Below are positions 33,440 through 45,560 of a stretch of 64,000 bases of DNA, in pieces. The stretch is from positions 3,008,001 to 3,072,000 of the forward strand of contig OZ220732.1 in the NCBI GenBank assembly GCA_965116905.1. Reading direction: 5' to 3'. The number at the start of each line of letters is the position of its first letter. Positions within the stretch are counted from its first letter, which is position 1. Position numbers and translations under genes: made by a program. The notes under the pieces are model-generated. The model ran no database searches, had not been told where the DNA came from, and was given only the letters and a program-made list of their open reading frames with translations. The stretch comes from Longimicrobiales bacterium (GTDB lineage Bacteria; Gemmatimonadota; Gemmatimonadetes; Longimicrobiales; Gaopeijiaceae).

Positions 33440-35961
33440 ATGAAGATAACCTCGGGCAGCGCACGGGCATTCGGCCTGCACGCGACACTGCGTTGCGTCG
33501 CGGCCATGGGCGTCTTCGCGGCCACCGGCGTGACGGGCGGTCCGGCGCTGGCACAGGAGCCTCCCGACACCGTCTTCGAGGTGGAGGCGCTCGAAGTGGT
33601 CGTCGGTTCGCGTGCCGGTGTGGCGGACCCGGCGACGCTCCCGGTCCCGGTCGACATCTACGGTGCCGAGGAGATCGCGCGTCTGGGAGAAGTCGATCTC
33701 GCCGAAGTCCTGGGACGGATCGCCCCCTCCTTCAACTCCACCCGTCTCTCCGCCGGGGACGGCGCAGCCCTCCACGTGGCCACGCTGCGCGGAATGAACG
33801 GCGACCAGGTGCTCGTGCTGGTCAACGGCAAGCGGCGTCACGGCGTAGCGTTCGCCAAGGTGCTCGCGGTGTCGGGACAAGGCACGACCGGCACCGACTT
33901 GCGCGCGATTCCCGTGCAGGCGATCAAGCGCATCGAGGTGCTGCGCGAGGGTGCGGCCTCGCAGTACGGCTCGGACGCGATCGCCGGCGTGATCAATATC
34001 GTGCTCAAGGACGACGCGAGCGGGATCAACGCGGCAACCTTTCTCGGGCGAACGTCCCGCGGCGACGGAACGAGGCTGATCACGTCGGCCAACGCCGGTG
34101 TGTCCCTCGGCGACGGGTTCCTCAATGTCACCATGGAGGTGGCCAGACAGGAGGTGACGAACCGGGCTGGCGCCGCACCCACCTGCTTCGGTCCCGACCC
34201 GTCCTACGGCCCCTGTGCGGATGGCGGCAAGGTCATACGGCTGCAGCGAAACGGCGAGCCCGACTACAGGGGCGCGGGCTTCATGGCCAATGCGGCGTTC
34301 CCCGTCGGAGAGTCTGCCGAATTCTATGCCTTTGGGGGCTACTCCGGCCGCGAAGCGGTCTCGGACGGCCTGTACCGGAAGGCCGACTGGGTGCCGCGCT
34401 CGGTCAGCTACGTGTATCCGGACGGCTTCTTCCCCGTCGAGGAGTCGGATCTCACGGACAAGTCGGCCGTGGCGGGGCTGCGGGGCGATGTGGGCAGATG
34501 GTCGGGCGACCTCAGCCTCGGCTTCGGGCAGGGCCGGTTCGCCTTCGGTGCCGCGAACTCAATCAATCCGTCTATGCGGCCGAGTACCTGGCCAGGAACC
34601 CCGGCGCGGATGGAGCGTCCATCGCGGCCAACGCGGGCCCGCGCAACACGTTCAGCGGGGGACTGAACGTACGCCAGTGGACGCTGAACGTCGATGCGAC
34701 ACGGGAACTCGACGTCGGCTCGACCCAGGCATTCCTGGCCTTGGGCGGTGCCTTCCGGAGAGACGCGTACTGGATGGAGGCCGGCGATCGAGGCTCGTGG
34801 GCATGCGGCCCGAGCGATACCCCTGGCAGCTTTCCGGCCGCCCATCACCAGAACGACGGGTCCGTGTTCGCGAGCTGCGGGATCCAGGGCTATCCCGGCT
34901 ACAGCACTTCCTCGGCTTCGCTGAGCGAGCGGGATCGGAACAGCTTCGGAGCGTACGCGGACATGGAGTTGCAACCGTCCGACGCCGCAACGCTGAGCGG
35001 CGCCTTGCGCTTCGAGCAGTACACCGACGCTGGCAGTTCGCTCACGGGCAAGGTGGCGGGCCGCGTCGAACTCGGCGAGTCCGGAGCCGCGCTGCGGGCC
35101 GCCGTCTCCACCGGCTTCCGCGCGCCGCGCCTGCCTCAACGGGGCTTCAACACGATCGGCTTCGTCGGCGGCAGCGAGGGGCTGGTGAGCGCCGGATTCC
35201 TGCCCGAGGGTGATCAGATCGCCTGCGACGACTTCGGGGCCTGCTCTCTGTCCCATGAGACATCGCTCAGTTTCACCGGCGGGTTCGTGTATTCCGGCGA
35301 CAATGGTCTCCTCGTGACCGCCGACTACTATCGAGTTGCGGTCGCTGACGCCATCGCACTGACGCAGAGCCTCAACTCGAGCCACGGGCTTCGTCCGGGC
35401 GCCCGGTTTCAGGGCCGGCCGGTGGACGCCGTCGCATTCTGGACCAATGCGATCGACACGCGTACCCAGGGATTCGATCTGGTCGCGAGCTGGCGATTCC
35501 GCGGGATGGCGTGGGGGGCCGCCGATCTTTCGGCCAGCCTGCACCGGAACAGCACCGAGATCACCGCCAACCGGAATGACAACTTCATTGGCGCCACTCA
35601 GCAGACCCTGATCGAGCAGGCGCAGCCGGGGCGCCGGATCGGCGTGAGCGCCGATGTCCGGTCCGCCCGCGGCTTCGGCGCCCGGCTCAGCGTGAACCAC
35701 ATCGGAGCGGTGACCACGCCGTTCATCTTCGAGGAGAACATCGCGATCGACGCCGCGGCCATCGCCGATCTTGAGGTCACGGTGCGGATCGCCGACCGGA
35801 TCCGCCTCGGACTGGGCGTCAACAACCTGCTGGACAAGCTGCCAAACCGGCTCCCGGACGACTCCGTGGCACAGCTCTGGACGATGGAATACCCTTCCGA
35901 ATCGCCGTACGGCGTCGCGGGGCGGATCTGGTACATGCGGGTGAACGTCGTCGGGAACTGA
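33440..35961 (+). pseudogene. TonB-dependent receptor split by a 1-nt frameshift near 34572 (pseudogene or sequence error)
   Basis: Plug motifs (LRG...DQVLVLVNGKRRH, IKRIEVLREGAASQYGSDAIAGVINI) are in the first frame up to AANSINPS. The barrel continues in another frame as YAAEYLARN...STGFRAP...SPYG. Confidence 0.85.
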
Positions 35962-37276: not shown

Positions 37277-40200
37277 CAGGAAATCACGCCCATGCCCAGC
37301 GCCTGGATGCGGCGGTTGAAGTCGGCGAGTTCGTCCCCCAGCACGTCTTCGACCGCTTCCCGGATCCGCAGCAGGCGTTGTTCGAGGATGTCGTGCACCT
37401 CGCCCTGCTGGTCCGTCGGCGGGAAATCGCCGATCGACACGGTCGTGAAGAGGTATCCCAGCCGTTCGATCAGCCGGGTGGGGTAGCGGATGGCGTCCTG
37501 TCCGGTGCCGGTCGCGCGCATCTGGAAGAGCCCGTCCTCGGCCGCGATCAGGCGCTGGTTGAGGGCATCGGCCGCGGCCACGAGTTCGGGCGTGTCACCC
37601 CTGTCCTCCAGGACCGCGCGCACGTCCAGCAGCTGCCGCCTCACCCATTCGACGCGGTTGATCAGCTCGCCCGTCTCCTCCAGATCGGCCCGGATGTCGG
37701 CCAGCGCCGCCAGCTGGACCTCGATGTCGGCGAGGGTCCCCTCGGAGTGCGGATCCTTGCGCACCTCCAGCTGCTGGGTCAGGACTTCGCCGCCGACCCT
37801 GAGGGTCACCGTGTACGTGCCGGGCGCCTGAAGATAGGTTCCCGCCCCGGGGCCTCCCAGCGGCCCCCCGGGCAGCGGCCGCCACCGCTCCTCGCCCAAC
37901 GGGACGTCCTCGCCATGGAGCGGCTTCGTGCGCAGCCGGACCTCCTCGACCGGATCGTTCATCAGGTCCCACCAGATCCGGTTGACGCCCGCGCTGGCCG
38001 TGCCCTCCAGGGTGCGGACGACCTCGCCGTCGGCGTTCGCGATCTCGATCACCACGCTGTCGTCGGTCGCCTCGGCGAGCCAGTAGTTCAGGGAGGCGCC
38101 GTACGGCGGGTTCTCTCCGTCGGACTGGTCGTCGAACATCGTGAAGGGCGCCGAGATCGGCTGGAATCGGTAGGCGGGACGCGGGGCGAAGAGGTGGGCC
38201 GCACTCGCCGCCACCTCGGGGGTGAGCTGCTGGAGGGGCGTAACGTCGTCCAGGATCCAGTAGCCGCGTCCGTAGGTGCCGACGACCAGGTCGTTGAAGT
38301 GCTCCTGCACGACGAGCCCATACATGGGTGCGGGCGGCAGGTTGGTGTGGAACTTCTGCCAGCGGTCGCCGTCGTCGAAGGAGACGTACACCGACGCCTC
38401 GGTGCCCAGGTACAGGAGGCCGGGACGCTCGGGATCCTCGTGGATCGCGCGGGTGTAGCTGAGCACGCCGTCGTCGATGCCTTCGGTGATGGGCGTCCAG
38501 CTCTCGCCGTAGTCGTCGGTCCTGTAGGCACGGGCCTCGAAGTCGCCCACCTGGTGGTGCTCGATCACCATGTACGCCTTGCCCGCCGTGTGCCGTGAGG
38601 CGTCGATCCCCCGCACCACCCCGTCCGGCGGCAGGTCCGGGATGTTCGCCGTCACGTTCGTCCAGCTGGCGCCGCCGTCACGGCTCATGTGCATCAGCCC
38701 GTCGTTGGTTCCGGCCCAGAGTACTCCGGGCTCGAGCGGGGACTCGTCGAAGGCGTAGATCACGCAGCAGTACTCCACCCCGATGTTGTCCGGCGTCAGC
38801 CCGCCGCTGATCCCCATGCGGCTGCGATTGTTCGTGCTGAGGTCCGGGCTGATCACCTCCCAGCTCTGCCCGCGGTTGGTCGTCCGATGGACGTGCTGGC
38901 TCGTTACGTAGACGGTGTTGTTGTCGTGCGGCGAAATGAGGAGCGGGAAGGTCCACTGGAAGCGGTACCTGAGCGAATCGGCAGGGTGGCCGGTGGTCGA
39001 TTCCGGCCAGACCTCGACCTCGCGGTATTGGCCGGTGCGCGCGTCCCAGCGCGACACGATGCCGCCGCCCGCTCCCACGCCGGATGCACTGGACCAGACG
39101 ATGTTCGGATCGGTGGGGTCCGGCGTCGCGAAGCCCGATTCTCCTCCGCCGACCGAGTGCCAGACGCCACGGGGAATCCCCACCCCGAAGATCCCGCCGC
39201 CCATGCGGCTATTGCTCGGGCCGCGGGTTGAGGGCCCGTCCTGCCGGTTGCCCATGACGTTGTAGGGAATCGCATTGTCGACGGTGACGTGATACATCTG
39301 GGCGACCGGCAGCTGCGCGCGGAACCAGGTCCTGCCGCGGTTGCCGGAGATCGCAAGGCCGCCGTCGCCACCCACGATCTGGCGGTCGCCGTCGTACGGG
39401 TCGATCCACATGTCGTGATTGTCCCAGGTCGGGCCTTCCATGAACCCCGCCGCGGTTGAGGTCACACCGCCGTCCAGCGTGGTGCTGTAGATCGCTGCCA
39501 GGAAGTACGCCTCGTCCGCGTCGTCGGGATTGGCCTCGCAGCGGGTGTAGTAGGCCGTGCGGCCGGCGAGATCGCGGTCGTAGCTGACAAGCGACCAGTT
39601 GTGGCCGCCGTCGTCTGACCGCCAGAGTTCGCCGCCGTCGGTGTCGCCGCCCTCCCAGGGAACGCCGTCTCCGGTCTCGATGAGGGCGTAGACGCGGCGG
39701 GAATCGGCGCGGCTCATGCACAGCGCGATCTTCCCGATCTCGCGGGTGGGAAGGCCGTTGCCGGCGAGCCGGGTCCAGGTGGTGCCGCCGTCGCGCGAGA
39801 CGTGGATGGCGCTGCCGGGGCCGCCGGATGTGCGGGTCCAGGTCCGGATCGCGATCTGCCAGGTGCCCGCAAAGAGGATGCGGGGATTGTTCGGATCCAT
39901 GACGAGGTCGCTCGCGCCGGTCTCCTCGTCCACGAAGAGCACGTGCTCCCAGGACGCGCCGCCGTCCATGGTGCGGTAGATGCCCCGTTCAGGCTGGGGC
40001 GCGTAGCCGTGCCCGATGGCCGCCGCATAGACGATGTCCGGGTCGGTCGGATGCACGATGATGCGGCTGATGCGCCCCGTGCCCTCCAGCCCCATGTGCG
40101 TCCAGGTCTCTCCGGCATCGGTCGACTTCCACACGCCGTTGCCGATCGACACGTTGGAGCGGATGAAGGGCTCTCCGGTGCCCGCCCACACGATATTCGG

Positions 40201-40521
40201 GTCGGAGGGTGCGACCTCCACTTCGCCCACCGAATGTACCGGCTGGTCGTCGAAGACGGGCCGCCAGTTGACGCCTCCGTCCTCGGTCTTCCACAGGCCA
40301 CCCGAAGCCGCTCCCGCGTAATAGGTAAAGCGGTCCCCCGGCACGCCGGTCACCGATGTGATCCGGTTCCCCAGCGGGCCGATGTGGCGGTACTGCATCG
40401 GGGCGAAGGAGGATGTGGGGACTTGCTGGGCGCTCCCCGGCGACGGGCGCATGGACGTCGCAGTGACCGACGCCAGCGTCAGAACAAGGGCAAAAGAAGC
40501 ACGTGGCACGAAGGATGACAT
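37276..40521 (-). CDS. VPS10/BNR (Asp-box) repeat glycosyl-hydrolase-like exported protein
   Basis: YRHIGP..NR, many S/T.DGG.(T/S)W Asp-boxes, QMYHV, RFQWTFP, C-terminal coiled segment. Confidence 0.88.
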
Positions 40522-40571
40522 CGTGAACATTCTCCCGATGGCGGTTAGCAAAAGCGTAGGACCTGATTAAA

Positions 40572-40647
40572 TGTGTGTACCGGAAAGCAATTATGCGCAC
40601 CGGAGAGCAATTGTGCCCACCGGAGAGCAATTGTGTCCACCGGAAAG
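40572..40647. repeat. 20-bp tandem repeat, about 3.5-4 copies, intergenic
   Basis: ACCGGAAAGCAATTATGCGC / ACCGGAGAGCAATTGTGCCC / ACCGGAGAGCAATTGTGTCC / ACCGGAAAG. Confidence 0.92.
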
Positions 40648-40721
40648 AGAACCGGCCGCCCGCAATGACGCCAACGATGGCCCCACTGCGAACGGCCGGT
40701 TGCCGGTTCCGGGACTCGCGG

Positions 40722-41198
40722 TCAGCTGTGGTCGTCGTGCACGTGCGCGTGCACCGGCGTCGTCACGAAATCGGCGTGTCCCGACCCTATGGCGCCGTGC
40801 ATGAGCATGAACGTCACATCGGTCTCGCCCTCCATGTGGCCGTGCAGATGGCCGCCGAACTCACCGGGGCTGTCCTGTTCCCACTCGGCGATCGACTCGT
40901 CTTCGATGTCGACTTCCAGGTACGTGTCGTCTTCCAACGGGATCGGATCGCCGTCGTGATCCACGAAACGGACGGTGATGTGCGGCGTTTCCTCGCCCAC
41001 GTCAACCTCGAGCTCGCCGGTCCAGGTCTGGGTTTCTCCGTCGTAGGACGCGATAACCTGGCCGCTCATCACGAGTTCCAGACCCTCGGGTTCGTAGTGC
41101 TCTTCCTCGTGTTCGGTCATCGACTCGCAGGCCGCGAGGACCAGGGCGAGAGCGGCGAGAACGGCAAGCGGTGCGTTTCTGTAGCTCCGTGTCTTCAT
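40722..41198 (-). CDS. His/acid-rich lipoprotein, putative metal-binding
   Basis: Lipobox LAAC; 13 His including HEEEH, HLHGH, MH...GH and HAHVHDDH; AGGAG SD. Confidence 0.82.
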   Translation of the reverse strand: MKTRSYRNAPLAVLAALALVLAACESMTEHEEEHYEPEGLELVMSGQVIASYDGETQTWTGELEVDVGEETPHITVRFVDHDGDPIPLEDDTYLEVDIEDESIAEWEQDSPGEFGGHLHGHMEGETDVTFMLMHGAIGSGHADFVTTPVHAHVHDDHS

Positions 41199-41251
41199 TT
41201 GTGTTTCTCCTGTGTTCGTTCTGATTGGAACAGTCGTGCCCGGGCACTTCC

Positions 41252-43489
41252 CTAGAACACGACCCGGTAGGTTGCTGTCAGGCCCCTCCCGGCCTCGGGC
41301 ATGATCGCCTTGACCCGGGAGAGGTGATTGCGGTATTCCGTGTCCGTGACGTTGTTGAGGCTCACGGTCAGGACATTAAGGCGGCCTCCCAGAGTGATCC
41401 GGGCGCCGGTGGAGAGGCTCAGCACCGTGTACCCGTCGGTCGGCGTCTCGAACTCGCCGATCCGGTCCTGCCTGGCCGCCATCTCGGCCTCACCGCGCAT
41501 GAACCACAGCGGGCGCTCATACTTCAAAGCCGTGTGCCCCCTGAGCGGAGGCACGAGGGGCAGGGGCTGATCGGAGTCCTTGAGGGTCCCCTGCACCGAT
41601 GACACCACGGCCTCGAGGGCGAATCCGCTACCGACGTCCACATCCAGCCCCGCCTCGAAGCCGCTGAACACGGCGTCGTTGCCCTGGAACTGGTATACCG
41701 GAAGCAGCACCCGGCTCAGGCGATCGGTGTCCTCGCCGTAGACGTAGCCCCTGATGTCGTTGTAGAAGCCGGTCACCTCGCCCCTCACCCTGTCGGACTC
41801 GAAGCGCAGGAAGATGTCCAACCCCCTTCCGATCTCGCTCTCAAGAGACGGGTTCCCGACTTCGAAGGCGTATGCCGCAAGGTGGGGTCCCTCCGAGTAC
41901 AGCTCGTCGATGTCGGGCGATCGAAATGCCCGCACAACGCTTGCGCCGAGCGTCAGGCCTGAAACCGGGTTGAACAGGACGCCCATGGATCCCGACAGGG
42001 CGTGGAAGCTGCGCTCACGGATCTCACCGATGTCAGAATCGCGATTCGCAGCCAGCGGATCGGCCCTGGTCCAGTCATAGCGCAGTCCCCCCTCGATCCT
42101 GGCGGGGCCCAGGTCGACTTCTTCCAGCAGGTACATCGCCGCCCTGAGGCGACGTGTGTCCGGCGTGAACAGGCTTCCGCCGTACGCAAAGTCCTCCCAC
42201 GAAACCCGGGCCCCCACTGCACCCGCCGCAAACGGCCCCCATTCCGCATGGCGGCCCAGGATATCTCCGCTCACGGCCTGTTGTTGGTAGAGGGTGCCCA
42301 GAATGTCCGGGGGCTCGATCTCCCGATGCTCGTACCAGGTGTGGGTCGCGGCGATACGGATATCCCGAAAGAAGACGCCCGATTCTTCCACTACGGTCTG
42401 GAATTTCGAGGCAAAGCGGTTCATCTCGATGCGAACGCCCTCGTCGTGCCCCCCGACGAACCCTCCCGGTATGCCGTAGTCGTTCCAGTACCCACGGAAG
42501 GACGCACCGAGATGTCCCCAATCCGCTACGTAGGCAGATCCCACCCCGCCGCTCCATAGTCGACCGTCGGTGTTGAACAGGGTGCCCACGGGCGTCTTTA
42601 GGTCCCCCGCCGTCCGCGCAGCCACCTCCACGCGCAGCGGCACCCGCTCCGCCATCGGAAAGACGACGGTCGTGCTGCCACCGACGGCACCTGTTGCACT
42701 CTGACTCTGAAGCGTGGTCGACCCCGTTACGTGGTGTGGGACCGACGAGGGAATCTCGTCACGTATGACGTTGATGACTCCTCCCAGCGCATTGCCTCCA
42801 TACAGCAGTGCCCCCGGGCCGCGCACGACTTCGATTCGCCGCGCGGACGACGGATCCAGGCCGGTGGCGTGGTCGTTGCCCGAGTTGGAGGCGTCTCCGA
42901 CCGGAGTGCCGTCCTCCAGCATCAGCACCCGATCGCCACTCAGCCCCCTGACCACGGGCTGTGAGACCATCGGCCCCATGCTGATGGCGGCCATTCCCGG
43001 CATCGAAGCGAGGGTCGCCGCGACGGTCCCCTCGCTCCTGAGCTGCAACGCGTCGCCGGCCATGACGCCAACCGGCCGGAGTGCCTCCGCGGCCCCTCGC
43101 TCGGTCAGCGTCGCCGTGACCACCATGCCCTGCAACGCGATCGGCGATGTCGTCAGCTCGACGACGACCACCGGGGACTCGTCGCCCGCCGCGACCTCGG
43201 TGTTCAGGCTCCGATAGCCCAGGCGCTCTATCCGCAGAGTGTAGTTCCCCCGGGCGATTCCCGTGAGGTGGAAGGTCCCGTCCCCGTGGGTCACCGCTCT
43301 CGTTCCCGTCCCGACCACCGCGACGAAGGCGCCCGCGAGCGGTTCGCCCGTCTCGGCATCGCGCACGACACCCTCGATCTCGCCCTCGTGCTCCGGTTCC
43401 TGGGCTTTTGCCGTGGTCCGGAGCAGGACGAGTCCGACGAACATCGTCATTGCGACGATGTGGTACGATCTGAAAAGCGTCGGTTTCAA
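41252..43489 (-). CDS. TonB-dependent receptor, ZnuD-like metal uptake
   Basis: N-terminal carboxypeptidase-reg domain; PVVRGLSGDRV, DHA in the plug, YEHRE, ELYSEGPHLA, YRNHLS, terminal F. Start TTG 43489 (alternative ATG 43450). Confidence 0.9.
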   Translation of the reverse strand: MKPTLFRSYHIVAMTMFVGLVLLRTTAKAQEPEHEGEIEGVVRDAETGEPLAGAFVAVVGTGTRAVTHGDGTFHLTGIARGNYTLRIERLGYRSLNTEVAAGDESPVVVVELTTSPIALQGMVVTATLTERGAAEALRPVGVMAGDALQLRSEGTVAATLASMPGMAAISMGPMVSQPVVRGLSGDRVLMLEDGTPVGDASNSGNDHATGLDPSSARRIEVVRGPGALLYGGNALGGVINVIRDEIPSSVPHHVTGSTTLQSQSATGAVGGSTTVVFPMAERVPLRVEVAARTAGDLKTPVGTLFNTDGRLWSGGVGSAYVADWGHLGASFRGYWNDYGIPGGFVGGHDEGVRIEMNRFASKFQTVVEESGVFFRDIRIAATHTWYEHREIEPPDILGTLYQQQAVSGDILGRHAEWGPFAAGAVGARVSWEDFAYGGSLFTPDTRRLRAAMYLLEEVDLGPARIEGGLRYDWTRADPLAANRDSDIGEIRERSFHALSGSMGVLFNPVSGLTLGASVVRAFRSPDIDELYSEGPHLAAYAFEVGNPSLESEIGRGLDIFLRFESDRVRGEVTGFYNDIRGYVYGEDTDRLSRVLLPVYQFQGNDAVFSGFEAGLDVDVGSGFALEAVVSSVQGTLKDSDQPLPLVPPLRGHTALKYERPLWFMRGEAEMAARQDRIGEFETPTDGYTVLSLSTGARITLGGRLNVLTVSLNNVTDTEYRNHLSRVKAIMPEAGRGLTATYRVVF

Positions 43490-43522
43490 GGGTGCCGCTC
43501 GATTTCTGCATCCACATCTGAT

Positions 43523-43554
43523 GCGAGCCATCCGTAACGGCCGGACGGCCTCGC
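43523..43554 (-). promoter_or_regulatory. hairpin between the RAPP leader ORF and the TonB receptor
   Basis: Minus strand GCGAGGCCGTCCG-GCCGTTA-CGGATGGCTCGC imperfect stem; no clean U-tract. Confidence 0.5.
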
Positions 43555-43583
43555 GGGTTTCCAGGGGGGGTCGCCGTGGAGGA

Positions 43584-43946
43584 TCAGGCGTGTGGCGGAG
43601 CCCTTGGTATTCCCGGTGCGGACCAGATCGACGCGTCGGCCGGCAGCGGCCAATCCGGGCACCGCTGCGCAATGTGGATGGGCGCAGCGCTACCGCCGGG
43701 TATCGAAATCCCGGGTGTGGCGCCCGTCGCCCACAGCGACCGCACGATCTGACAGAAGAGGTGCCCGTGATGACCCAGGCACTCGGTGCTCTCCGGTGTT
43801 TCGATGTGCACCGGCGACCCGAATTGGGCCTTGTCCAGAACGGCATCCGCAGGAACCAGCAACGTTGCAACGGCCACCTGGGCCGCAGCGATGCACGAAA
43901 CGGCGACTCGCCGCCACCCGCGCCTGCTGGATTGCCGTAGGAACAA
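43584..43946 (-). CDS. DUF2946/CruR-like leader peptide with C-terminal RAPP arrest motif
   Basis: Basic N-terminus plus hydrophobic segment; H.E....ECLGHHGHLFC cluster; Pro/Ala-rich linker; ends PRAPPHA*; directly upstream of a TonB receptor. TTG start uncertain. Confidence 0.75.
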   Translation of the reverse strand: MFLRQSSRRGWRRVAVSCIAAAQVAVATLLVPADAVLDKAQFGSPVHIETPESTECLGHHGHLFCQIVRSLWATGATPGISIPGGSAAPIHIAQRCPDWPLPADASIWSAPGIPRAPPHA

Positions 43947-44000
43947 AGTCGTCGCCTTGCTGATGCCGGGTGCACTGGCTGGTCGTCAAGACTCAGCACA

Positions 44001-44074
44001 TGGGCCCAGAGGGACTTGAACCCCCGACCGTCGGATTATGAGTCCGCTGCTCTGACCGCCTGAGCTATGGGCCC
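44001..44074 (-). tRNA. tRNA with CAU anticodon, probably tRNA-Ile2 (lysidine-modified); CCA not encoded
   Basis: GGGCCCA/TGGGCCC acceptor stem, TAGCTCAG D-arm, CTCATAA loop, GGTTCAAGTCC T-arm. G1-C72 is paired (not initiator); C4-G69 and C5-G68 fit TilS substrates. Confidence 0.93.
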
Positions 44075-44114
44075 GGATAAGGCTAACGAATCCACCGATC
44101 CCCGGCCACCACGC

Positions 44115-44750
44115 TCAGGAGGTCCCGAACAGCCGGTCTCCGGCGTCGCCGAGGCCGGGCACGATGTACCCCACATCGTTCAGCTGGCGGTCCAGGGCGG
44201 CGGCGTATACGGGGACATCCGGATGCCGGGCCGTCATGTGCGCCGCGCCCTCGGGAGCAGCCACCACGCACATCAGGCGAATGTCGGTGGCGCCTTGCGA
44301 TTTCAGTTCGGAGGCCGCCGCTGCCGCCGTCCCGCCCGTGCCCAGCATCGGGTCGAGCAGCAGGCAGGTCGAGCGCCCGCTCGGCGAAGGCAGCTTCCCG
44401 TAGTACCTCACGGGCTCGAGCGTCTCCTCGTTCCTGTAGAATCCCAGATGTCCCACCTTCACCCCGGGAATCAGCTTTCGGACGCCCTCCAACATTCCCA
44501 GTCCCGCCCTCAGGATGGGGACGGCCACCAGGCGGTCTTCGCGGATGCGGCGCAAGCGGGTGGTTTCGAGCGGAGTCTCAACGCTCACCTCGTCGCCCTC
44601 CAACGCCCGCGTTACATGAAATGTCATCAGCAGTGTGATCTGATCGAGAAGCTCCTTGAACTCCGGCGACCGGGTGCGCTTGTCCCTCAGGAAGGACAGC
44701 TTGTGCTCGATCAGTGGATGACGGACCACTTCCAGCGTCGAATCAGACAC
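44115..44750 (-). CDS. upp: uracil phosphoribosyltransferase
   Basis: HPLIEHKL, PILRAGLGM, DPML.TGGT, GYIVPGLGDAGDRLFGT. Confidence 0.96.
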   Translation of the reverse strand: MSDSTLEVVRHPLIEHKLSFLRDKRTRSPEFKELLDQITLLMTFHVTRALEGDEVSVETPLETTRLRRIREDRLVAVPILRAGLGMLEGVRKLIPGVKVGHLGFYRNEETLEPVRYYGKLPSPSGRSTCLLLDPMLGTGGTAAAAASELKSQGATDIRLMCVVAAPEGAAHMTARHPDVPVYAAALDRQLNDVGYIVPGLGDAGDRLFGTS

Positions 44751-44762
44751 GCGTATCTCCTT

Positions 44763-45560
44763 TCAACCCCGGCGACCCCGGTCGTCCCGGCGGCCCCGGC
44801 GATCCCGGTGCCCCACGAGGCTCCTGGCCTCGGCCAACTCGGAGCGGCGGGCAGGCCTCCAGGCTCCCGGCTTCAGGCCCCCCAGCCGAAACGGGCCGAA
44901 CCGGGTCCGCGCCAGGGAGCGCGGGGGATGGCCCACCGCCCTGAGGAGCCGGCGAACCTCCCGTTTTCTGCCCTCGGTGAGCACGATCCGGACACCCGGC
45001 TCGTCGCCTTCCCACTCGATCCTGCGCACCCTTGCCGGGCGGGCAAAGCCGTCCTCCAGCTCCACCCCTCCCTTGAGGCGTTTCAGCGTGCGGGAGCTGA
45101 GTCGCGCCGCAATGCGCGCCTGGTACTCGCGCTCGATCCTCCCGCGGGGGTGCGCCAGAGCGGCGGCGAGGTCGCCTTCGTTGGTCAGGAGCAACAGGCC
45201 GGAAGTATCGCGGTCCAGCCGTCCCACGTAGCGCAGCCCGCTGGCCCAGGGTGGCAGAAGGTCGTACACCGTCTTGCCCCCGTGAGGGTCGCTCCTGGTA
45301 CAGAGGACGCCGACCGGCTTGTGGAAGACGATCCAGCGGCGAGGCGCGGGCTCCACGACCCGGCCATCCAGGGAAACCACGTCGGTCCCGGGGAGCACAC
45401 GGGCTCCCATCCGGGTGACGGGCTCACCGTTGATGGCGACGCGGCCTTCCCTGATCATCACTTCGGCCTGGCGACGCGACGCGGCCCCTGCCTGAGACAT
45501 GTACTTCTGCACACGCACCCGCTTCTGCACACGCACCCGCGAGGGAGCCTCAGGCTTCAC
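44763..45560 (-). CDS. rluB: 23S rRNA pseudouridine synthase (RluB-like)
   Basis: S4 domain QKYMSQAGAASRR, HKPVG, VGRLDRDTSGLLLLTNEG, EGRKREVRR; start approximate. Confidence 0.9.
   Translation of the reverse strand: MKPEAPSRVRVQKRVRVQKYMSQAGAASRRQAEVMIREGRVAINGEPVTRMGARVLPGTDVVSLDGRVVEPAPRRWIVFHKPVGVLCTRSDPHGGKTVYDLLPPWASGLRYVGRLDRDTSGLLLLTNEGDLAAALAHPRGRIEREYQARIAARLSSRTLKRLKGGVELEDGFARPARVRRIEWEGDEPGVRIVLTEGRKREVRRLLRAVGHPPRSLARTRFGPFRLGGLKPGAWRPARRSELAEARSLVGHRDRRGRRDDRGRRG

Follow-up and report, generated by a model that had tools for sequence, protein, structure and literature searches.

A 120-residue open reading frame (ORF) that very probably encodes a metal-sensing ribosome-arrest leader stands at the head of a putative metal-uptake module in a Longimicrobiales bacterium (GenBank GCA_965116905.1, contig OZ220732.1, positions 3,008,001 to 3,072,000 of the forward strand; these 64,000 nucleotides (nt) are referred to below as the window). 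The module lies entirely on the minus strand, in the order tRNA(CAU) gene, leader ORF, 94-nt gap from the leader stop codon to the TTG of the next gene, TonB-dependent receptor, His-rich lipoprotein. Judged by its pattern of substitutions, the ORF is a real gene under purifying selection, and the arrangement of such leaders before transporter genes exceeds chance. On comparative sequence evidence, we consider it somewhat better than an even chance that the module is a CruR-type arrest switch, which would keep the ZnuD-like receptor and the lipoprotein expressed under scarcity of a divalent metal, zinc being the likeliest. The genome of the species under study is labelled G000, and other G and L numbers denote genomes and loci of relatives; those relatives that carry names are Gemmatimonadota, many of them labelled Longimicrobiales, and the habitat-labelled sequencing runs containing the stretch are sponge metagenomes.

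Conservation of the leader

Loci were retrieved through the receptor alone, ignoring the leader, and a leader homologue was found by tblastn upstream of the receptor in 29 of the 30. The leader alignment leaves out L028 (no leader) and L021 (frameshift), giving 28 rows. The initial annotation, made from the letters alone, had described an ORF with an export-like N-terminus, a Cys/His cluster, a Pro/Ala-rich spacer of about 50 residues and a PRAPPHA* end, and had named the lack of a conserved RAPP-ending ORF upstream of orthologous receptors as grounds for rejection; the description is confirmed, and the orthologues give no such grounds. Their leaders are 118–120 residues long, start with TTG (26) or GTG (2), and end in R-[A/G]-P-P plus one or two residues, with D38, H47, C56, H62, C65, Q66, R69, P114, R115, P117 and P118 invariant in 28/28. 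The N-region has a net charge of +5 in residues 1–14 and a maximum 15-residue Kyte-Doolittle score of 2.08, its hydrophobic stretch ending in P-A-D-A; by the same simple measures a basic region, a score of 1.3–2.4 and an AxA motif are found across the 28 orthologues. The cluster reads H47-x-E49...C56-x3-H60-x-H62-x2-C65, and V68 takes the place of the second Cys of a CxxC (C65-Q-I-V68), a Cys absent in 28/28. From C65 to R115 the spacer measures 49 residues in every orthologue (33% Pro plus Ala here), with a mean identity of 29.5% over residues 72–112.

The ratio of nonsynonymous to synonymous substitution rates (dN/dS), taken over 39 close pairs, was 0.32 overall; by segment it was 0.10 (arrest motif), 0.17 (His/Cys core), 0.40 (N-terminus) and 0.44 (spacer). 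The leader had no match among Pfam and NCBIfam families. An AlphaFold model of low overall confidence (mean predicted local distance difference test score, pLDDT, 55.7) was used only for its two predicted helices, residues 5–42 and 62–73. Among the stop-to-stop frames of G000, 102 end in R[AG]PP, of which 3 pass a filter for His/Cys content and a hydrophobic segment, all 3 lying before transport genes; control endings put through the same filter gave 0/87 (A[AG]PP), 0/102 (R[SV]PP) and 3/503 (R[AG]P[AGRS]).

Distribution and related loci

The receptor was matched in 52/61 genomes, a tally that includes the unpublished G037 and G056, and a profile of the leader matched in 50/53 genomes of the genus and 77/401 of the phylum. 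The profile collected 208 protein clusters at E ≤ 1e-3, with a RAPP or RGPP end in 145 of the best 150. The weaker matches of the 401-genome search define 40 distant loci, whose leaders end in R[AG]PP without exception (41/41), including 6 in which the profile match stops before position 85.

G000 holds two more RAPP leaders, of the HxH...CxxC-45-RAPP type. One precedes a ZnuD-like receptor paralogue and a near-identical copy of the lipoprotein, and stands behind DUF3299 and a Fur-family gene. Between this Fur gene and the leader lies an A/T-rich stretch that resembles a Fur box; a palindrome scan gave no match there. The other precedes an ATP-binding cassette (ABC) ATPase with DUF3526 permeases, and in its predicted fold a pyrimidine tract just before the arrest codons pairs with the ATPase gene's Shine-Dalgarno (SD) sequence. 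In G029, G030 and G441 (L153–L155), a porin-like gene, ZnuA and ZnuB are headed by a 111-residue His/Cys RAPP leader whose only Cys precedes the Arg by 45 residues, a look-alike that the leader profile misses at E ≤ 0.001; in the G029 copy, the Pro codons form a near-perfect anti-SD of the next gene.

Several rearrangements were seen among the relatives. In G244 and G180, the same tRNA is followed immediately by the receptor, without a leader or a promoter-like box between, and G180 (L049) retains a leader copy ending in RASP before the lipoprotein alone, the receptor there being gone. At about 1960–2010 of L049, the lipoprotein is preceded by a new −35-like box and a perfect 8-2-8 palindrome; the palindrome was dropped as a zinc box, given 18 look-alikes in G000 and none at its three leader loci, and these look-alikes suggest that it is the operator of some regulator. 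A receptor paralogue clade (L028; G000:C1:2513607-2515811, minus strand), 70–74% identical, has neither leader nor lipoprotein. In L021 (G004), a one-base difference in a T run at about 548–552, near the leader end, joins leader and receptor in one 929-residue open frame, which could be an assembly error. The whole leader-receptor-lipoprotein module is tandemly duplicated in G023 (L064), and G120 (L091) has two lipoprotein copies in series.

Relation to known arrest leaders

The leader is probably a distant relative of CruR (Bp2923 of Bordetella pertussis, DUF2946/PF11162), judging by sequence and layout. The DUF2946 search suggested by the initial annotation gave a match in 0/28 orthologues at E ≤ 10 (Pfam threshold 23.7 bits); sub-threshold matches occur in 15/62 wider homologues (best 20.4 bits), and 13% of the members of a neighbouring ESM Atlas cluster are DUF2946 proteins. 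C65 corresponds to the first Cys of a CxxC present in 70/145 wider homologues, and the second Cys or its position lies 43–47 residues before the Arg in 142/144 Cys-bearing homologues (46 here, from V68 to R115). In CruR this spacing to RAPP is 45, changes of 1–2 residues being tolerated and the response lost at +5 (PMC9426467), and arrest has been demonstrated with both Pro codons of the motif occupying the P and A sites (PMC12992588).

In both systems the leader is first in an operon with a TonB receptor and has an export-like N-terminus, a Cys site at fixed distance, RAPP 2–3 residues before the stop, a long intergenic gap, a tract with C in excess of G near the stop, and importer cargo. The leader here differs from CruR in lacking DUF2946, in having C-Q-x-V for CxxC with HxE and HxH added, and in belonging to another phylum; its cargo is a ZnuD-like receptor with a His-rich immunoglobulin (Ig)-fold lipoprotein rather than BfrG and PepSY_TM, the gap is 94 nt against 162 nt in CruR, and its arrest codons are predicted to base-pair with the start of the following gene. 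No copper-homeostasis Pfam family was found among 46 downstream proteins scanned, so that the CruR-type copper context is missing. Since DUF2946, CXXC and copper context are all absent, the leader is CruR-like in layout but by those tests not a member of the family.

CutF of Rhodobacter capsulatus is likewise a small exported protein with Pro-Pro near its C-terminus and a gap below 100 nt, in which the stall opens a structure over the next ribosome-binding site (RBS), as is predicted here. The leader satisfies the published CutF-like filter in being shorter than 150 residues, having PP in its last 15 (P117-P118) and a co-oriented gene within 1 kb; the filter also lists a signal peptide (10.1101/2022.11.11.516240). 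CutF, however, stalls at PPP with copper present, turns on a detoxifying oxidase and senses in the periplasm (10.1101/2022.11.11.516240, 10.1101/2025.02.05.636593), whereas the motif here is RAPP, the cargo an importer and the expected direction opposite.

A class of upstream ORFs that end in RAPP or RGPP and precede TonB receptors has been published for Gram-negative bacteria at large (PMC12992588), and the locus fits what that text describes: a small protein with a signal sequence and RAPP/RGPP at its C-terminus, followed by a TonB receptor gene. The words "zinc" and "Gemmatimon" do not occur in its available text, nor "Gemmatimonad" or "ZnuD" in nine supplement files, although Fig. 4E and further files could bear on the point. 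CutF-like leaders with a specificity other than copper were proposed earlier, for Ni/Co, His-only ones preceding HupE/UreJ genes, in a text whose available part contains neither "zinc" nor "ZnuD" (10.1101/2022.11.11.516240). In Caulobacter, a DUF2946 gene, known there by annotation only, heads a Zur-activated efflux operon (PMC4176598).

Cargo and the likely metal

As the initial annotation had stated, a TonB receptor and a lipoprotein with 13 His follow the leader in the same orientation. The receptor is a TonB-dependent receptor by its Plug (PF07715, 65 bits) and barrel (PF00593, 118 bits) domains, and its best sequence match in the Protein Data Bank (PDB) is ZnuD of Neisseria meningitidis (4rdr, E = 1.8e-26). 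The high-affinity zinc site of ZnuD comprises D99, H100, E340 and H499 (PMC4557270), and with a 14-residue chain offset D206, H207 and H536 of the receptor align with D99, H100 and H499. Only 7/30 receptors fit a strict regular expression written for the D-H motif of the plug; since this pattern is too narrow to test conservation, the D-H claim concerns the receptor of the window only. A conserved H-R/K-E motif in the receptors is presumably a candidate for the fourth ligand. The receptor differs from ZnuD in its extra CarboxypepD_reg domain; the control of ZnuD is exerted by Zur, and no leader has been described for it.

The lipoprotein had no match in Pfam, NCBIfam or PDB sequence searches. 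Its predicted structure, of high confidence (pLDDT 90.9), is an Ig-like β-sandwich with invariant H-x-E, H-G and H-x-D motifs, to which Foldseek returned generic Ig-like folds only (best template modelling score 0.58, normalized by query). It is a putative, and likely, metal-holding partner of the receptor.

Downstream of the leaders in the 40 distant loci are a TonB-type receptor in 32 (some partial or weak), a porin-like gene with ZnuA and ZnuB in 7, and a contig edge in 1; "porin-like" (415–480 residues) is a reading of context, there being no family match. ZnuB adjoins in 5 more distant loci that do not head ZnuAB. In the genus, ZnuA occurs in 4/53 genomes, two of which, G029 and G030, are the two in which neither the receptor nor its leader turned up; the ZnuA of G007 is on a short contig without a RAPP leader. 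The best NCBIfam models for ZnuA and ZnuB of the three porin operons were AztC and AztB, with MntC close behind. The DUF3526 family of the third G000 leader operon is presumably that of Caulobacter znuGHI too. DUF3299 corresponds to ZrgE, which belongs to the Zur regulon in Vibrio (PMC9817125), and the ABC-2 system znuGHI is Zur-repressed in a paper that does not use the term DUF3526 (PMC4176598).

Because of the ZnuD ligands, the ZnuAB operons, the ZnuA swap in G029 and G030, and DUF3299, zinc is the best guess and, provided that this is a metal switch, the probable signal on sequence grounds, Mn, Ni, Co and Cu being possible. A less probable alternative, though one to be taken seriously, keeps this switch and makes its signal Mn, Ni, Co, Fe or even Cu instead, or one that is not metal-specific: sites of His, Cys and Glu bind several metals, CxxC occurs at CruR spacing in about half of the wider family, the linked binding protein has MntC-type matches, His-only CutF-like leaders stand before nickel and cobalt genes (10.1101/2022.11.11.516240), and heme-receptor models rank first for 3 distant receptors. 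It is opposed by the retained ZnuD ligands, by the ranking of AztC and AztB above Mn models, by the position of DUF3299 beside the paralogue, and, as regards copper, by the lack of copper genes downstream, by receptors poor in Met and Cys, and by a score of 87 bits against a cut-off of 472 for the copper model (OprC/TonB-copper, TIGR01778). The view of the initial annotation that the cargo points away from copper has comparative support.

Place of sensing

C65 lies 52 residues and H47 70 residues from P117, and helix 62–73 lies 44–55 residues from the stall site. Force profiles of other proteins place periplasmic folding at about 70 residues from the peptidyl transferase centre and first membrane contact at 45–50 (10.1101/2021.02.06.430026). 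With its ligands 52–70 residues from P117, the site would therefore be too close for periplasmic folding while stalled. The initial annotation had proposed sensing at the translocon or in the periplasm; by this reckoning periplasmic sensing is doubtful, and the translocon mouth or the cytoplasmic side fits better, in line with CruR, whose export signal is dispensable.

An alternative is that the leader, like SecM, monitors export or membrane insertion and so links synthesis of the receptor to secretion capacity, or that it holds the mRNA at the translocon, the His/Cys residues then being structural. The export-like N-terminus is present in 28/28, helix 62–73 lies at the distance of first membrane contact (10.1101/2021.02.06.430026), and RAPP leaders of sec genes are known (PMC10987492). 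We consider this improbable, since selection is strongest on the His/Cys core rather than the N-terminus (dN/dS 0.17 against 0.40), the cargo is always of metal-uptake type and sec genes occur in 0 of 40 loci.

Slightly less probable still is that the ORF encodes a small metal-binding protein or chaperone of the periplasm that works in trans, with RAPP incidental or slowing only its own synthesis. The signal-like N-terminus with A-D-A, the conserved mature start and the G180 RASP copy away from a receptor would fit such a protein, but the spacer keeps its length while its sequence drifts, the ORF is always first in the operon, RAPP/RGPP is depleted from ordinary proteins (PMC12992588), and the motif decays exactly where the receptor behind the leader has been lost (G180).

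RNA structure between leader and receptor

A 201-nt region is more stable than its shuffles (z −3.4), and in the predicted fold the codons of P114-R115-A116-P117 and the stop codon pair with the weak SD and the TTG of the receptor. With the footprint of a stalled ribosome masked, the RBS opens at a cost 4.6 or 3.7 kcal/mol lower (the value varies with the folding window), a gain that 0/25 intergenic shuffles equalled; the same effect was seen in 7 of the 9 closest orthologues. The test over all orthologues has 27 rows, leaving out L017 (start not assigned), with receptor starts picked by eye and frame-checked. The hairpin that the initial annotation placed in the gap is present at 43523–43554, but it lacks a U-tract and falls outside the consensus fold of the 9 closest orthologues. 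A terminator scan found no intrinsic terminator in the leader-receptor gap and did not list this hairpin; one terminator-like match, inside the His/Cys codons, was at chance level and was rejected. Within 40000–45000 of the window, a search for known RNA families and riboswitches found only the tRNA.

C exceeds G by at least 0.1 after the leader stop in 23/28 orthologues and 26/41 distant leaders, compared with 24% of 164 co-oriented background genes, and G000 has a Rho gene at 4152563. A second Rho-like gene (G000:C1:3360058-3361185, minus strand, 490 bits) falls just under the cut-off. C-rich RNA after the stop would fit an anti-RBS role as well. In the modelled scheme, RBS opening (in this subclade) and shielding from Rho (a family-wide candidate) would act with the same sign, a stalled ribosome keeping the cargo on.

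Transcription of the module

The module keeps a constant position across the genus on the 3′ side of tRNA(CAU), which lies co-oriented upstream of the leader in 26/28 loci (on the opposite strand in 1; 1 locus cut short). ARAGORN assigns 44001–44074 as tRNA-Met(CAT) with CCA not encoded; it may be a lysidine-type tRNA-Ile. TTGAC occurs upstream in 25/28 leader loci, 70–91 nt before the start in 23 of these, and in relatives an A/T-rich −10-like stretch follows about 17 nt later. In this species, TTGAC is 43 nt before the leader start and the −10-like stretch is missing, and this short form is found gap-free in contigs of four runs from four studies, the best holder of which may be the source sample. 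With the −10-like part of the leader's promoter lost, transcription of the module probably comes from the tRNA by read-through, which fits the receptor directly behind the tRNA in G244 and G180, and the leader may be the main metal control of the module in this species. No common palindrome that could be a Zur box was seen by eye in the promoter regions of the leader loci, no formal test having been made, and none of the four Fur-family genes of G000 reached the Zur cut-off.

That the switch is vestigial here, promoter damage having silenced the module and a paralogous leader-receptor-lipoprotein locus substituting for it, is very improbable: the −10-like element is indeed missing and G000 has two further receptor paralogues and a second lipoprotein copy, but all three frames are intact, the strain contigs from four studies are gap-free in leader and promoter, and the promoterless receptor genes of G244 and G180 fit read-through.

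The features are collected in Table 1. In the interval between the lipoprotein gene and a BNR-repeat gene (40595–40645), three 20-nt tandem copies (ccggagagcaattgtg-like) were noted, on which two promoter-like matches fall; one run has one copy fewer. At 33440–35961 on the plus strand, a TonB-receptor-like gene is apparently split between the frame 33440–34666 and the second half of 33493–35961, likely by a frameshift near 34610.

Table 1. Features of the module and of the further RAPP leaders in G000; positions are those of the window unless a G000 contig is given
Feature	Position	Strand	Remarks
tRNA(CAU) gene	44001..44074	minus	directly upstream of leader; likely read-through source (inferred)
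TTGACG, −35-like box of the leader's own promoter	43984..43989	minus	−10-like part absent here (27 nt shorter)
Leader upstream ORF, 120 aa, TTG start, candidate metal-sensing arrest peptide	43584..43946	minus	conserved across orthologues
Residues 1–35: basic N-region, moderately hydrophobic helix, conserved Q/H23, A-D-A; predicted signal peptide or membrane anchor	43842..43946	minus	from hydropathy and charge
Residues 47–65: predicted metal site H47-x-E49, C56, H60, H62, C65	43752..43808	minus	dN/dS 0.17
Residues 66–114: short helix QIVRSL, then variable ruler of fixed length	43605..43751	minus	49 residues in 28/28
R115-A-P-P118 arrest motif; codons form 5′ strand of predicted helix over receptor start	43593..43604	minus	RAPP 18, RGPP 10 of 28
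C-rich tract, like a Rho utilization (rut) site	43544..43583	minus	C minus G fraction 0.25
Hairpin rich in GC and lacking a U-tract; forms inner arm of predicted fold	43523..43554	minus	not conserved
Receptor initiation region, weak SD and TTG	43487..43518	minus	predicted pairing with arrest codons, stop codon and C-rich tract
ZnuD-like TonB-dependent receptor, 745 aa, N-terminal CarboxypepD_reg domain, TTG start	41252..43489	minus	Pfam, NCBIfam and PDB matches
His-rich lipoprotein, 158 aa, 13 His, lipobox LAAC24, strong AGGAG SD	40722..41198	minus	predicted Ig-like β-sandwich
Second RAPP leader (HxH, CxxC, 45 residues, RAPP)	G000:C1:2560902-2561184 = L108:4903-5184	minus	DUF2946 16.7 bits, weak
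Third RAPP leader, CxxC type	G000:C1:1028222-1028555 = L109:8223-8555	minus	before ABC ATPase and four DUF3526 ABC-2 permeases

Proposed mechanism

In the proposed switch, the ribosome would stall at RAPP, as in CruR. At low metal the stall would persist, covering the arrest codons along with the first part of the C-rich tract, freeing the weak TTG start of the receptor (in this subclade) and shielding the RNA from Rho (the family-wide candidate). Metal bound to H47, E49, C56, H60, H62 and C65 would fold the site together with the QIVRSL helix immediately beyond the exit tunnel, most probably at the mouth of the translocon or on its cytoplasmic side, so that the chain would be pulled and the stall released. 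The helix over the start codon would then re-form, Rho would terminate, or both, and the uptake genes would be off; since the cargo is an importer, as in CruR, metal should indeed switch the operon off.

Several observations weigh against this proposal. The genomes are kin, so the counts are not independent and measure breadth, not probability. Some lineages can dispense with the leader, since the receptor has none in G244, in G180 and in one paralogue clade. The AlphaFold model shows no confident fold at the metal site (pLDDT below 50 at residues 47–61). The top NCBIfam model of the receptor, ZnuD (NF038289), scores 180.9 bits against a cut-off of 950, below membership, and a heme-receptor model follows slightly lower at 162 bits; the ZnuD ligand E340 is outside the aligned stretches, and binding proteins of the ZnuA/AztC type carry Mn or Fe as well. 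The 9 closest orthologues share a consensus fold that keeps 95% of its 18 pairs, only 2 of them with double changes, and no genus-wide consensus RNA structure survives in 15 sequences. RBS opening of at least 2 kcal/mol is predicted in only 9/27 orthologues (control footprint 2/27), and it is clear in 1/3 leaders of the porin-ZnuA type, as also in 1 of the 2 other leaders of G000. In the RNA contigs of run X3, the module has the same flat depth as its neighbours; such depth, like that of the flanking genes, means that the contigs cannot show expression.

Significance

Nascent peptides can sense copper, as CruR and CutF do, and zinc homeostasis is otherwise described through Zur. Arrest-leader switches of this kind are known from CruR, CutF and the EMBO J 2025 survey; the new part is the zinc-type His/Cys variant in Gemmatimonadota. 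No publication on a zinc-sensing arrest leader was found in the open-access literature, bioRxiv supplements being able to bear on the point, and the available text on CruR states that a riboswitch for Cu or Zn is not known (PMC9426467).

A wider and tentative proposal, which we hold to be somewhat improbable as a whole, is that an arrest peptide sensing zinc through His/Cys in place of CxxC is the main zinc switch of these symbionts, fed in this species by tRNA read-through and without an operator of its own. On this view RAPP leaders head every zinc-type uptake locus examined, namely two ZnuD-like receptors and the DUF3526 ABC-2 operon of G000 and, where the receptor is absent, porin-ZnuA-ZnuB. 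If the zinc version is true, a translational layer would be added to zinc homeostasis, and one arrest scaffold would have been retuned by exchanging Cys for His ligands. The clade offers a test set for this, with its invariant ruler, its natural loss of the second Cys, its leader losses (G244, G180, G004) and its exchange of cargo between receptor and porin-ZnuAB.

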